The notes under the pieces: model-generated | Seen by the model: the letters and a program-made list of their open reading frames with translations, nothing else | Databases searched by the model: none | Told to the model about the DNA's origin: nothing | From: Candidatus Hydrogenedentota bacterium | Lineage (GTDB): Bacteria; Hydrogenedentota; Hydrogenedentia; Hydrogenedentales; GCA-2746185 | NCBI GenBank assembly: GCA_046583315.1 | Contig: JAYGCN010000187.1 | Location: forward strand, 1-29,740 | DNA length: 29,740 nt | Direction of reading: 5' to 3' | Made by a program: the position numbers and the translations under genes | Part shown: positions 10,160-15,007 of the stretch, one piece after another | How positions within the stretch are numbered: position 1 is the stretch's first letter | Layout of the letters: every line of letters starts with the position of its first letter

Positions 10160-10981
10160 ATGTCCACCACGAACTGGCAAACTGCAAAAGAATACAACGA
10201 AATCTTCTATCATAAAGCTGATGGAATTGCGAAAATTACGATAAACCGGCCCGAAAAGCGCAATGCCTTTACGCCATTGACCGTGGATGAAATGCGCGAC
10301 GCGCTCGACGATGCACGGATGGATACCTCCATCGGCGTCATCATCCTCACCGGTGAAGGCGACCTCGCGTTCTGCTCCGGCGGCGATCAGGGGATTCGCG
10401 GCGACGCGGGATATGAAGGCACCACCGGCCCACCTCGCTTGAACGTACTCGACTTTCAGCGCGAAATTCGCGTGTGTCCCAAACCGGTGATTGCGATGGT
10501 CGCGGGATACGCGATCGGTGGCGGACACATTCTCCATCTCGTTTGTGATTTAACCATCGCCGCGGAGAATGCCATCTTCGGTCAGACCGGACCCAAGGTC
10601 GGCTCCTTTGATGCTGGATACGGTTCCAGTCATCTCGCACGAATCGTCGGGCAGAAGAAGGCGCGCGAAATCTGGTTCTTGTGTCGGCAATACGACGTTC
10701 GTGCGGCAGAAAAAATGGGCATGGTTAATCACATCGCGCCGCTTGCCGAACTCGAAGAAGAAACCGTGAAATGGTGTAAAGAGATTCTCGCACTCTCACC
10801 AATCGCGTTGCGCTGTATCAAAGCGGCCATGAATGCCGACGAAGACGGCGGTGCCGGATTACAACAACTCGGCGGCGACGCGACGTTACTCTTCTACATG
10901 AGCGAAGAAGGCCAAGAAGGCCGCAACGCCTACAACGAAAAACGTAAACCAGACTTCAGTCGTTTCCCGAGATTGCCTTAA
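10160..10981 (+). CDS. menB: 1,4-dihydroxy-2-naphthoyl-CoA synthase
   Basis: [54 protein letters not shown]. Confidence 0.98.
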
Positions 10982-10986
10982 CTGCC

Positions 10987-11122
10987 TATTCACCGCGGAG
11001 ACGCGGAGAAACGCGGAGGAAGAAACCGAATACAGCTTTTTTCTTAATGCAAAGGTGCAAAGCCGCAAAGGAAGGAACTGAAAACTGCTTTAAGAACATA
11101 TTTAACACAGAGACGTAGAGAG
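10987..11122 (+). repeat. Left array: three units of an ~8-bp-period repeat (YGCRRAG)n
   Basis: TATTCACCGCGGAGACGCGGAGAAACGCGGAG (10987), TTAATGCAAAGGTGCAAAGCCGCAAAGG (11044), TTTAACACAGAGACGTAGAGAG (11101). Confidence 0.8.
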
Positions 11123-11191
11123 TTTTACTGATATGGCGAGTGGTAGTTGACCCACTTGTACACTGTACATTTTGTGTGAAAGTTGATTTCT

Positions 11192-11867
11192 ATGGACCAC
11201 CTTCTAAAATATTTGGAAAAGCACTTTAATGAGAGTGATCTGAGTACTTCGGAATTTAGGCTTTCAGGTGAATATTATCTGCGATTCGAACTCGGGGATC
11301 CCCATAAGAACGGTACAATTGAACGCGTAAATCAGAGTGTCAAACGAGCAGTTACTATTTTTGAAGAAATATTTGACGAGAACGATGATATCTGCTTATT
11401 TATCAAGTCTGGTTCATATGATGTTGATTCCACCAAAGGTCTAATTCCAATAAACGACCATCTAGAGAATCAACCCAAGAATTTTTCTTACCAAGATGTT
11501 TCTCAACGAACAGAAGTGGAAATTGAAGAATGAGGAAGTTTATGATTTTAACAAGGATGGGAATTTGGTGGTCGTAGATGCTGATGACCTCACTCATGTT
11601 CTAACGTGTCTTTGTCTGAAGCAAAAGGATATCAGGGTTGAGAATATTATTAGAGGCATCGCGAATTATGATATGGGATTTACACCCAGTATTGTTGACA
11701 GAATCTACTTCATAAACACGGACGCAAGTGTTGTATTTTATATGTATGATGATCGGGGATGTTTGTTGTTTTCCGATAGAAAAGATGTACTAGAACCACT
11801 ATATACGAAATTCAACAATTGGCTAGTGGATTACGATAGAAAGAACCTCGCATTACTCTTTGAGTAA
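11192..11867 (+). pseudogene. DUF3885-family protein split by a frameshift (~11496-11533); low GC
   Basis: 5' ORF has LRFELG...RAVTIFEEIF; the +1 ORF has IANYDMG...IYFIN...MYDDRG...YTKFNNWLVDYDR. About 37% GC in a counted line versus about 57% in a menB line. Confidence 0.8.
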
Positions 11868-11978
11868 CCCTCGGCGCTAAAATAAATTGCTCTTAGCAGT
11901 TCTCCGCGACCTCCGCGTCTCCGCGGTGAATAAAATATGAAAAGAAAAACCCCTTGCGCCTTTGCGTCTTTGCGTTAA
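11868..11978 (-). repeat. Right array: inverted copies of the same repeat units
   Basis: Minus strand TTAACGCAAAGACGCAAAGGCGCAAGGG (11978), TATTCACCGCGGAGACGCGGAGGTCGCGGAG (11932), truncated TTAGCGCCGAGGG (11880). Confidence 0.82.
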
Positions 11979-11996
11979 AAACAAAAGAGTGAATGA

Positions 11997-12872
11997 ATGA
12001 AAAATTGGATACTCGCCAGCAGACCCAAGACCCTCTGGGCGGGAGCATGCCCAGTGATGCTGGGTACGGCGATGGCGTTTGACGCGGGGTTGATGCATGT
12101 TCCCTCGGCGTTGGCGGCACTGCTCGGCGCGTTGCTCATTCAAATCGGCACGAACTTCGCCAACGATTATTACGATGGCCTCAAAGGCACGGACGATGAA
12201 AATCGAAAAGGTCCGCCTCGTGCTGTTGCGTCCGGCTTAATCACGTCTGAGACCATGAAACGCGCAATGATCGTGACCATGTTGCTCGTGTTCGTTCCGG
12301 GCGCGTATATTTTGTGGCGTGGGGGAGTCCCCTTTCTCATCATCGGCATCGTCTCCATCCTTTCCGGCATCGCTTATACCGGCGGCCCCTACCCCCTGGC
12401 GTACAACGGACTCGGTGATATCTTTGCGCTCGTATTTTTCGGTCCTGTTGCGGTCGCGGGAACCTACTATCTTCAGATCTACGCTGTTCCGCCAGAGGTC
12501 ATCATTGCTGGATTCGCTCCTGGATTATTTTCGGTGGCTATCCTCACGGTCAACAACCTGCGCGACATCGAAGGCGATGCGAAGGCCGGGAAAAAGACCT
12601 TAGCCGTTCGTTTCGGTGCCGGATTTTCTCGCTTCGAATACGTGGTGTCTCTGTTCGCCGCGACACTCGTGATACCCGTCGGCCTAAGCCTGTACACGGG
12701 CGCGCATTACTTATCCATCGTGTCCGGGGTTACCTTTCTTTTAGCCATCCCCGCGTACATAGCGATTGTGCATCACGCCGCAGATGGCCCCATCATGAAC
12801 GCCACCCTCGCGAACACCGGAAAATATCTCCTCATTTTCACTATCCTGTTTTCCGTCGGATGGATTCTATGA
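11997..12872 (+). CDS. menA: 1,4-dihydroxy-2-naphthoate polyprenyltransferase
   Basis: W..ASRPKTL, NFANDYYDGLKGTD, YTGGPYPLAY.GLGD, NNLRDIEGD..GKKTLAVRFG; multiple TM helices. Confidence 0.97.
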   Translation: MKNWILASRPKTLWAGACPVMLGTAMAFDAGLMHVPSALAALLGALLIQIGTNFANDYYDGLKGTDDENRKGPPRAVASGLITSETMKRAMIVTMLLVFVPGAYILWRGGVPFLIIGIVSILSGIAYTGGPYPLAYNGLGDIFALVFFGPVAVAGTYYLQIYAVPPEVIIAGFAPGLFSVAILTVNNLRDIEGDAKAGKKTLAVRFGAGFSRFEYVVSLFAATLVIPVGLSLYTGAHYLSIVSGVTFLLAIPAYIAIVHHAADGPIMNATLANTGKYLLIFTILFSVGWIL

Positions 12873-14269
12873 CGCTTCACAACGGAAAACCTTCCGACCC
12901 CGCTGTCATCGCTCCCGAAGGCGTGCTGACCTACTCCGAATTGGATGCTCAGTTCGACCTCTGCGTCACTACGTTTCGAGCGGCCGGCATACAACCCGGT
13001 CATCGTGTCGCGTTGTACCAGTCCACATCCCTGCGTTACCTCATCTCCATGCTCGCACTCATCGAACTCGGTACGGTCGCGTGTCCCATCAGTACACGCC
13101 TGCCGGAAGACGGACTCCAGGATGCTGTGCGTCGTATTGGTGCCCAAGCTATTTTTTACGCGGATCGTGTCGCACCTGTCGCAGGATCGCCGATAAGCCC
13201 CATCTTCTTCGACGGCATGCGGATCGATCCCCAGGAAGAAGAAGCCGAAGAAGCCGCAACTGATTCTGATCGCTGGGCGACGATTATTTTTACGTCAGGT
13301 AGTTCCGGTACACCCAAGGCCGCGGTACACTCGCTCGACAATCATTTCCAGAGTGCTTTGGCGTCCAACGTGAATATTGCGCTCGTACCCGGCGACCAAT
13401 GGTTGCTTTCACTTCCTCTGTTTCATGTGGGCGGACTCGGCATAATTTTTCGGTGTTTACAGGCTGGTGCAGCGATGGTATTGCCTCAGGCAGACGAGTC
13501 GCTCGAGAAAACGCTCGAAACGGACGGCGTGACCCATATCTCCCTCGTGTCCACACAGCTTTATCGCCTCATGCAGTCCGAAGAATCAACGCGCCGACTC
13601 GCGAAATTCAAAGCCGTGCTCATGGGGGGTAGCGCGATGCCGGAACGCCTGATCGCGCGGGCAATCGAGGCGGGCATCCCCATTCACACCAGCTACGGCA
13701 TGACAGAGATGACCACGCAGATTACCTGCACGCCCGCGCACGCCGATAACGAGACCTTACAGTCGTCGGGATTTCCCTTGCGTCCCGATTCGATCCGATT
13801 GGCTGATGATGGAGAGATTCAGGTGAACGGCCCCACGCGTTTTCAGGGCTACTTTACAAATCGCGAACTCGATTCCCCCTTCACCTCTGGCGGCTGGTTC
13901 TCCACCGGAGACTGCGGACGCTTCGACAAGGCCGGGCGCCTCCACGTCACCGGACGCGTCGATAATCAATTCATCAGCGGCGGCGAAAACATCCAGCCCG
14001 AAGAAATCGAACACGCGTTCTGTCAAATCGAAGGGATTCTGCAAGCCGTTGTCGTGCCCATCAACGATGAAGAATTCGGACAGCGTCCTGTGGCTCTGAT
14101 TCGCGCAGAAGGCGAATGGAATGAAGCCTCTCTCAAAGATAATCTCCGCCAGACGCTACCCAGATTCATGATACCCGCTCGAATACTCGAATGGCCTTCC
14201 GAGCTTATTCCAGAAGGAATGAAAGTGAACCGCACCCGACTTCGTGAGTATTGTGTTTCCGAAATCTAG
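12869..14269 (+). CDS. menE: o-succinylbenzoate--CoA ligase
   Basis: FTSGSSGTPKA, SLPLFHVGGL, SYGMTE, TGD, GRVDNQFISGGENIQPEEIE; ATGA overlap with menA. Confidence 0.93.
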   Translation: MTLHNGKPSDPAVIAPEGVLTYSELDAQFDLCVTTFRAAGIQPGHRVALYQSTSLRYLISMLALIELGTVACPISTRLPEDGLQDAVRRIGAQAIFYADRVAPVAGSPISPIFFDGMRIDPQEEEAEEAATDSDRWATIIFTSGSSGTPKAAVHSLDNHFQSALASNVNIALVPGDQWLLSLPLFHVGGLGIIFRCLQAGAAMVLPQADESLEKTLETDGVTHISLVSTQLYRLMQSEESTRRLAKFKAVLMGGSAMPERLIARAIEAGIPIHTSYGMTEMTTQITCTPAHADNETLQSSGFPLRPDSIRLADDGEIQVNGPTRFQGYFTNRELDSPFTSGGWFSTGDCGRFDKAGRLHVTGRVDNQFISGGENIQPEEIEHAFCQIEGILQAVVVPINDEEFGQRPVALIRAEGEWNEASLKDNLRQTLPRFMIPARILEWPSELIPEGMKVNRTRLREYCVSEI

Positions 14270-14314: not shown

Positions 14315-15007
14315 ATGGATCGGGAAACAAAGTTGAAGGAACTGCTTGAGGAAACACGTCAGCGTATTCGGGAACTTGCGGATGAGGATCCCGACGAATG
14401 GTTCTACGCAAATCGATATATTTTCGAAAGACTTGGATTGGATGAACGGAAAACAAAGACAGGTATAAAGAAGGCCCTATTTGACGCGAATGAACCATGT
14501 GACTTCTGCGGAAAACATTTTGAGACGAAGAAGAACGTTCATATTCATCGAAGAGATAGCAAAAGAGCATACTCATCTGATAATTGTGTACTCATGCATC
14601 CGGAATGTCATAGGGACCATCATAAAGAGAACCCGAATGAGGGTCTTTCTAATCTGACGATGGAACAGGAAGTATCATCGGATGCGAGGTATCGAACGAA
14701 GGGAAGCTGTTTATATGATAACAACAGGTTTCGATATTGGTGGGATATTTCGCCGAATCACCTCGAACGATACAAGAATGAAGACGGTATTCGATTTATG
14801 AAAGATGATTCGGGTATGTTCTGTGAGGTTTCATTTGCTACTTTGAAGCCTTTTCTGAGTGAGATTCGTCGAACGTCACGAGGTAAAGGGAACTGGGGTG
14901 TACGTGTGCTGCTGGAGCAACCGGAAGAACTTGCGTTTGAGTCCCCTTCGGGTAGTAAAGATTGGAAATTCCTGTCCGTAGAGTGGCAACAAGGCTCTCA
15001 TACCTAA
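14315..15007 (+). CDS. HNH endonuclease-domain protein, AT-richer than flanks
   Basis: CDFC...VHIHRRDSKRAYSSDNCVLMHPECHRDHH; unassigned N- and C-terminal regions. Confidence 0.8.
   Translation: MDRETKLKELLEETRQRIRELADEDPDEWFYANRYIFERLGLDERKTKTGIKKALFDANEPCDFCGKHFETKKNVHIHRRDSKRAYSSDNCVLMHPECHRDHHKENPNEGLSNLTMEQEVSSDARYRTKGSCLYDNNRFRYWWDISPNHLERYKNEDGIRFMKDDSGMFCEVSFATLKPFLSEIRRTSRGKGNWGVRVLLEQPEELAFESPSGSKDWKFLSVEWQQGSHT

Follow-up and report, generated by a model that had tools for sequence, protein, structure and literature searches.

In Neisseria, genes for the small single-domain nuclease Ssn, a GIY-YIG protein (cd10448), lie between copies of their own repeat, NTS-SRM (dRS3), and 42% of Ssn homologues are flanked by it on both sides (PMC11893778). 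NIME arrays are mosaics of repeats and spacers beside variable genes, for which the uptake of exogenous DNA has been proposed (PMC11893778; PMC1797815). REPINs, with the related REPtron and TIRtron, are extragenic inverted doublets accompanied by solo remnants; they cluster by insertion into each other, and their enzyme gene stays put across lineages (PMC3116915; PMC3733652; 10.1101/2021.07.10.451892). Insertion of DNA into REPINs has been named as one route to singlets (PMC3116915). The minimal mobile elements of Neisseria are alternative short gene sets in a syntenic spacer between conserved genes (PMC1797815). Integron cassettes carry a single foreign gene with tight borders.

We analyzed a window of 29,740 nucleotides from the genome (G000) of a marine Candidatus Hydrogenedentota bacterium, in which a foreign gene between menB and menA, two genes of the vitamin K pathway, is bracketed by inward-facing repeat arrays, here called arms. 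The site would seem to work like the Neisseria Ssn/NTS-NIME arrays or like REPINs, with a different nuclease; it belongs to none of these systems, differing from each in enzyme family and in repeat structure. As with Ssn, a small single-domain nuclease gene, here GxxExxY, lies between its own repeats (16 of 26 loci), gene and repeat co-occur at the level of genomes, and many repeat copies are without a gene. However, the family here is PD-(D/E)XK (TIGR04256/PF13366), and NTS folds on itself into a hairpin whereas an arm here is a row of words whose only pairing partner is the opposing arm; the sequence-specific cleavage of single-stranded DNA at the repeat that marks Ssn is a putative activity for GxxExxY. 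Like REPINs, the arms form extragenic inverted doublets able to fold into a hairpin and leave solo remnants, but the repeats are not individually short palindromes, they show no GTAG/CGTC-tagged palindrome, and their doublets often contain whole ORFs. Nor is the enzyme an HUH Y1 transposase: a search for RAYT (HUH Y1; PF01797) gave no matches in this genome (96.7% complete), with the control positive in 6 of 14 genomes. The menB-menA spacer also holds alternative short gene sets, as minimal mobile elements do, but its alleles differ across genera, not strains, and repeats fall outside that concept as set out in the accessible text (PMC1797815). Integron cassettes share the single foreign gene and the tight borders, but we found no attC fold or match and no integron integrase, and the sites are inverted instead of direct. 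The arms do show the features of repeats that accompany GxxExxY genes, namely tandem 7-base purine-rich words with an 8-10-bp period, a T-rich head and an inward orientation at gene junctions; the one GxxExxY copy in the genome is broken, and an intact cognate gene was not found.

Layout of the menB-menA locus

The preliminary description placed the foreign gene in the men operon, and it does sit there, although the operon here consists of menB, menA and menE only (Table 1). The surrounding units are short purine-rich words in tandem, with a period of 8-10 bp, behind a T-rich head. When recomputed, the reported geometry held: positions 10987-11008 are the exact reverse complement of 11911-11932 (22 bp), 11044-11071 and the reverse-complemented stretch 11951-11978 agree at 23 of 28 positions, and unit heads fall at 10990, 11045 and 11103 (55/58 bp apart) on one side and at 11977, 11929 and 11879 (48/50 bp) on the other. 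Apart from L1/R2, the assembly (4.65 Mb in 355 contigs) has no perfect inverted pair of at least 22 bp separated by 300-2000 bp. Pairing by similarity (L1 with R2, L2 with R3) is crossed, not nested, and, in line with the reported lack of a target duplication, none was found beyond the TTAA (4 bp) common to the unit heads. Two details held only in part. A degenerate 7-mer does lie 2 bp from the cargo stop codon, but its reported truncation at that point is indistinguishable from decay; the inner spacers do resemble each other, but similar spacers stand behind units elsewhere in the genome. At two positions, L2 is nearer to the consensus in the public runs than in the assembly.

Table 1. Features at the junction of menB and menA, with positions in the window
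Feature	Position	Strand	Description and basis
menB	10160..10981	+	Left host gene, 1,4-dihydroxy-2-naphthoyl-CoA synthase; cut-offs of TIGR01929 and NF005637 exceeded
L1	10987..11018	+	Left unit, head and three CGCGGAG words; 6 bp past menB stop; partner R2
Linker, copy 1	11022..11036	+	GAAACYGAAAACYGC type, genome-specific; pattern search
L2	11044..11071	+	Left unit, CGCAAAG type; partner R3 at 23/28
Linker, copy 2	11074..11098	+	Continues into inner spacer AACTGCTTTAAGAACA
L3	11102..11120	+	Left unit, degenerate CRCAGAG type
DUF3885 cargo gene, 5' part	11192..11533	+	Profile positions 3-93; start backed by homologue N-termini
DUF3885 cargo gene, 3' part	11496..11867	+	Profile positions 93-189, other frame; profile match
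R1	11868..11880	-	Right unit, one degenerate word abutting cargo stop; weak, sequence inspection
Right inner spacer	11888..11901	-	AACTGCTAAGAGCA; similar spacer at C73
R2	11902..11932	-	Right unit, three CGCGGAG words; partner L1
R3	11951..11990	-	Right unit, CGCAAAG type; outer A-rich stretch directly before menA start
menA	11997..12872	+	Right host gene; over NCBIfam cut-off
menE	12860-14269		Downstream of menA

The duplex between the two arms is predicted at -76.1 kcal/mol, against -48.7 +/- 5.1 for 200 shuffles (z = -5.4), whereas neither arm by itself folds better than shuffles do (z -1.4 and -1.1). The predicted fold is a long stem, from 10987 to 11932, that closes around the cargo. The arms might accordingly be kept as an RNA structure that pairs in the menB-menA-menE transcript and loops out the insert, so that the insert would be tolerated or its expression damped. 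The predicted stem around the cargo fits this reading, as does the restriction of the signal to the inter-arm duplex, and no terminator-like site was found at the locus. However, any inverted repeat folds in this way, and the structure would account for tolerance of the insert, not for its origin; as an explanation of the locus we consider it very improbable. Promoter-like sites occur at chance level (3 vs 2.6).

Two kinds of recombination had been suggested, at attC-like sites or driven by a RAYT. Integron-like attC sites used by a tyrosine recombinase would suit a single foreign gene whose stop codon lies at the repeat edge, and the cargo types at other arms (SMI1/KNR4, toxin-antitoxin pairs) are cassette-like. 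Against such sites, Rfam gave no match for the arms, which are not self-palindromic and face inward rather than forming direct sites, and the two full tyrosine recombinases of the genome score best as XerD and XerC. This reading is largely refuted and we give it almost no weight. With no RAYT and only XerC/XerD-like recombinases found, neither suggestion gained support; of the co-occurrences that had been proposed for checking, the one with GxxExxY genes was upheld, while RAYT was absent and the tyrosine recombinases were of the XerC/XerD type only.

In phage and plasmid sequences, the ends showed no match to an annotated element, as the preliminary description would have it: no phage match was found, and six weak plasmid matches carry no annotated feature at that point. 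As mutual matches the two arms rank only 7th and 9th of 62, and only the GxxExxY pair of this genome ranks 1st-3rd. Judged from these sequences, the crossed arms, their ranks and the lack of a duplication beyond 4 bp speak against terminal repeats of the IS/MITE kind.

The cargo proved to be the AT-rich DUF3885 gene that had been described, with a GC content of 0.37 against 0.53 for the genome and a GC3 of 0.32/0.39 against 0.61/0.65 for menB/menA. A one-base frameshift, missed at first, splits it into 11192-11533 and 11496-11867. The base in question, 11531, is missing in public runs X2, X3 and X4 and present in X1; therefore, the cargo gene, frameshifted in the assembly, is intact in three of the four runs and in part of the population. 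This population check used contigs of four public runs from three studies, and contigs drop rare variants. In X1 and X2 a single contig spans the entire cassette, in X3 and X4 several contigs cover it piecewise, and all four have the same allele. The empty or inverted alleles expected among reads did not appear in credible form in these variant-poor contigs. A joint from 11041 to 11959 in X2, with a likeness of 88 and 21 letters on its shorter side, is probably another repeat locus and was rejected.

Cargo homologues occur in many phyla, the best (51%) in a Marinicella genome. A weak protein search for the cargo 3' half among longer proteins gave no match at E 0.001, and an atlas search with an intact homologue returned DUF3885 clusters only. 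DUF3885 genes are present in 7 of 13 other family genomes, where they belong to a different subfamily without a tblastn match to the cargo and without arms; dating the cargo from them was dropped on these grounds. In genus g8, a distant DUF3885 subfamily (L031-L035) has host-like GC and one conserved site in five genomes, so this family can also be domesticated.

Two other features of the window deserve mention. A low-GC ORF directly after menE (14315-15007; GC 0.41 in 14401-14800), with a weak HNH match below cut-off, is probably another insertion, placed where the men genes end; no repeat units were detected there. Inside menB, at 10438-10628, a contig of run X2 carries about 30 clustered differences, which represent a recombined segment or a second strain.

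Arms across the genome

A pattern built from the six units matched the genome 81 times, against 12-16 times in three shuffles, and a wider pattern set matched 98 times, against 14-25. A looser unit pattern (313 matches vs 251-284 in shuffles) was discarded. The 77 matches outside long ORFs, with five re-added by eye, make 82 units in 61 arrays, some of which will have arisen by chance; most arrays are solo. Units are joined by the linker listed in Table 1, which under a loose pattern has 28 copies (0-1 in shuffles), 19 of them within 150 bp of a unit, and under a strict pattern 16 copies in this genome and at most two in each of 132 others. R3 has near-copies at C14 (33/34) and in an arm before xylA at C95 (37/42). 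Because the modules match other loci as well as each other, the arms are best read as mosaics of genome-wide modules.

We found an inward partner scoring at least 30 for 15 of the 37 arrays that had 2 kb available on both sides (both members of each pair counted), and an outward partner for none. The ten distinct inward pairs comprise five that hold an ORF (the menB-menA locus, C76, C101, C220 and C346), one that holds a broken GxxExxY gene (C202) and four in which the content, 65-280 bp, is all non-coding. In the other order genomes examined, short palindromes facing outward are common, and the strict inward bias is thus a feature of this genome.

The proposed link between inverted pairs and low-GC DNA also emerged in this genome, both in the inward orientation and in what the arrays face. 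By a crude longest-frame rule for calling ORFs, the ORF faced by an array is below 48% GC in 12 of 54 cases, and none of the 54 ORFs at the back of an array is; the background is 3.4% of 4006 ORFs. For solo arrays, with three doubtful ones dropped, the facing 500 bp fall below 48% GC in 12 of 32 and the back in 0 of 32 (background 6.6%). Arm backs lie close to host genes (median 22-63 bp) and fronts point toward spacer DNA, and the low-GC bias may partly reflect this placement. Faced ORFs include SMI1/KNR4, DUF7684, DUF998 and AbiJ-N proteins and many without a family; a Pfam cut-off was reached by 9 of 36 proteins, drawn mostly from array-faced loci.

At C346, about 560 bp are taken up by arms and a low-GC 130-aa ORF; the corresponding site of the same-genus genome G001 measures about 65 bp and lacks arms. 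At the sites orthologous to C76 (two sites), C101 and C220, neighbors differ or were not found in five relatives. Cargo capture is suggestive in this genome, and unproven.

Several arrangements were seen in passing. The linker stands three times in tandem with a 31-bp period, with no units between, behind a CACAGAT unit at C183:15054-15158 and C291:1-44. An inward arm pair at C137:7265-7576 surrounds a different REP-like sequence (labeled by eye) and AT-rich filler. The xylA junction has an arm pair and 118 bp of filler in this genome and short gaps in G005 and G006; upstream of xylA in G009, a GxxExxY 3' remnant (read by eye) lies between ACAGGAT-type arms (L288).

GxxExxY genes and their own repeats

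The suggestion that such repeats recur near GxxExxY genes was borne out in genomes of the family and the order. PF13366 is present in 14 of 14 family genomes, with 30 loci found and 26 used (two own and two contig-end fragments were excluded). Inward units detected by pattern lie on both sides at 16 of these 26 loci, and outward-facing units at two. The inverted-repeat score of the flanks is at least 31 at 21 of the 26, a value reached by 2 of 1000 random ORFs (99th percentile 23). GxxExxY genes each come with a matched arm pair of their own, reminiscent of terminal repeats, and copies keep the same site across genera. The word types of the menB-menA locus flank GxxExxY genes at L044, L061, L296, L297, L300 and L305.

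Of 133 order genomes, 106 contain the 8-bp unit pattern and 107 contain PF13366 (E 1e-20). The pattern is absent in 17 of the 26 genomes without strong PF13366, nine of these 17 being of one genus, and in 10 of the 107 with it. This genome has 34 hits of the pattern and a sole GxxExxY gene, which is broken and carries CACAGAT-type arms; we found no intact or cognate copy in the assembly. Same-genus G001 has 0 hits and a decayed GxxExxY gene. The suggestion of an enzyme acting in trans today thus gained no support, the only GxxExxY gene being broken and of a different arm type.

The protein tied to the arms (TIGR04256/PF13366) has about 130 aa, with D74 and K86 invariant and E84 near-invariant (D...ExK); its sequence matched no solved structure. 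PF13366 is listed as a PD-(D/E)XK family of unknown function in the accessible part of PMC3424549. In the literature searched, which covered few subscription journals and no supplements, GxxExxY with repeats is not described and biochemical data on GxxExxY were not found. The one mention, in the accessible text of 10.1101/2021.01.26.428298, is incidental, and the MITE catalog of PMC11602168 may include such elements unnamed. The repeats apparently belong to an undescribed nuclease-plus-repeat family. Its interest is that a large nuclease family, listed without function and present in 107 of the 133 order genomes, comes with flanking repeats that name a substrate for direct assay, as was done for Ssn.

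In 16 hand-picked loci of other order genomes, the repeats enclose GxxExxY five times, MNT/HepT-type toxin-antitoxin pairs twice and non-coding DNA four times; the MNT/HepT pairs lie within the same arm type in two genomes.

Origin of the insert

As predicted, relatives carry empty and alternative alleles at the junction. In 75 genomes with collinear menB and menA, the gap, measured between match ends, is at most 100 bp in 52, 101-400 bp in 18 and more than 400 bp in 5. G008 has an empty inward pair; G010 and G011 have a GxxExxY gene with inward arms between menB and menA, and G013 has one right after menB. The insert is an orphan 151-aa ORF in G001 and a DUF433/DUF5615 pair in G079, neither with recognizable arms, and other palindromic repeat families were seen at several of 20 junctions picked by hand, mostly longer ones. 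The menB-menA spacer is a promiscuous landing place. The GxxExxY genes of G010, G011 and G013 form one clade of their own with arms of the ACGGAT type, and the arms of G008 too are of another type than those here; therefore, the locus studied here is a separate event at the same spot. A g8-genus GxxExxY cassette was rejected as its direct ancestor, having another arm type and a separate clade.

How often cargo travels with arms was seen in two surveys. None of 40 genomic loci of cargo homologues had units on both sides. A metagenome survey listed 120 loci with the L1/R2 unit, 40 of them with 300-bp flanks only. Among those listed, empty inward pairs shorter than 250 bp were the commonest recognizable form (52), one locus encloses a GxxExxY gene and four more face one, two are long pairs around ordinary-GC genes, and 61 have no partner. 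Because the loci listed are mostly empty or partnerless, cargo-filled pairs are rare in general, yet they do recur, at C346 and around the MNT/HepT pairs. The original idea of a dedicated cassette-capture system is not supported by these results: arms are missing from all 40 homologue loci, arm-less foreign genes occupy the same junction, and cargo pairs were not seen among the 120 metagenome loci listed, bar the two long pairs with ordinary-GC genes.

The account we favor, at about even confidence, is that an empty GxxExxY-type arm pair settled first, that a foreign gene then entered and more modules were added, and that the locus is now inert here. Gene-less arms of the GxxExxY repeat family would have spread into gene junctions as empty inward pairs and solo arms, and one pair would have settled in the permissive menB-menA spacer in this lineage. 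A horizontally acquired DUF3885 gene would then have come in between the arms by break-and-repair or by recombination at the hairpin, possibly after a cognate GxxExxY enzyme, now missing, had cut there. Recombination with other copies could have supplied more arm and linker modules and produced the crossed mosaic, and the locus would now be fixed and decaying. We infer this order of events, the role of the nuclease and any cutting chemistry. Support for this account is drawn from the bracketed GxxExxY loci (16 of 26), the junction alleles of relatives, the co-occurrence across the order, the abundance of empty pairs, the inward and low-GC bias, C346 and the crossed pairing. Against it, no relative has empty arms of the same word type at the junction, the predicted intermediate, and the GxxExxY genes there are a clade of their own; foreign genes also enter the junction without arms (G001, G079) or with other repeat families, and the assembly has no intact or cognate GxxExxY gene.

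A rival reading, which we regard as clearly less probable, is a coincidence at a hotspot. The gene would have entered the spacer first, by ordinary recombination at a site of the minimal-mobile-element type, and solo arms would have settled later beside the menB stop and the menA start; arm backs would always be turned to host genes, hence the seemingly inward orientation. Consistent with this are the five inserts longer than 400 bp among the 75 collinear genomes, of which two lack recognizable arms, the several unrelated palindromic repeat families at the junction, the prevalence of solo arrays in this genome, the low mutual ranks of the paired arms and the near-identity of R3 to arms at C14 and C95. 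Yet nothing else in the genome equals the 22-bp identity of L1 and R2, and the predicted inter-arm duplex far exceeds that of shuffles; moreover, an ORF lies inside five of the ten inward pairs, and low-GC DNA is also what solo arms face.

The strong version put forward at first, in which arms and cargo are a non-autonomous transposable block moved by a GxxExxY enzyme in trans, appears unlikely. It would explain why C346 has both cargo and arms where the compared allele is empty, why the same arm type surrounds MNT/HepT toxin-antitoxin pairs in two other order genomes, and why every GxxExxY gene has its own matched pair. It is at odds with the 0 of 40 cargo homologue loci with units on both sides, with a crossed mosaic instead of nested ends and no target duplication, with the lack of a credible empty or inverted allele in the contigs of four runs, where rare variants are dropped, and with GxxExxY copies fixed at the same site across genera.

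The repeats look like landing places for foreign DNA rather than a proven gene-capture machine. A bolder extension, which we think doubtful, is that GxxExxY and its arms form a widespread gene-uptake system not yet described, in which empty pairs sit at operon junctions, nuclease cutting allows single foreign genes or toxin-antitoxin pairs to enter or to be exchanged, and a linker peculiar to the lineage builds the arrays. If gene-less repeats channel foreign genes into core operons, this would be an integrase-free route of single-gene acquisition and also a source of small sequence-specific nucleases; if not, they remain a dispersed repeat family, so far unannotated, whose copies mark recent insertions.

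Other menB-menA spacers showed further arrangements. In G010, on the stretch from GxxExxY to menA (L011:935-1075), two right-hand arms enclose a diverged copy of the 3' end of the GxxExxY gene, which looks as if it came from repeated insertion or duplication. After menB in G129 (L312; C700:1-1650), a gene fragment with an in-frame arm palindrome is followed by a GxxExxY gene of another clade and, further on, by tandem arm palindromes with a decayed GxxExxY 5' end. The spacer of G125 (L229; C563:1760-3100) holds a 400-codon frame with a different in-frame palindromic repeat and, judged by eye, a possible DUF559-type nuclease and intein-like ends. In genus g31 (G052, G053, G055 and G056), menA lies on the strand opposite menB, and in G056 the two genes are separated by short repeats and by what reads by eye as a PIN-like pair.
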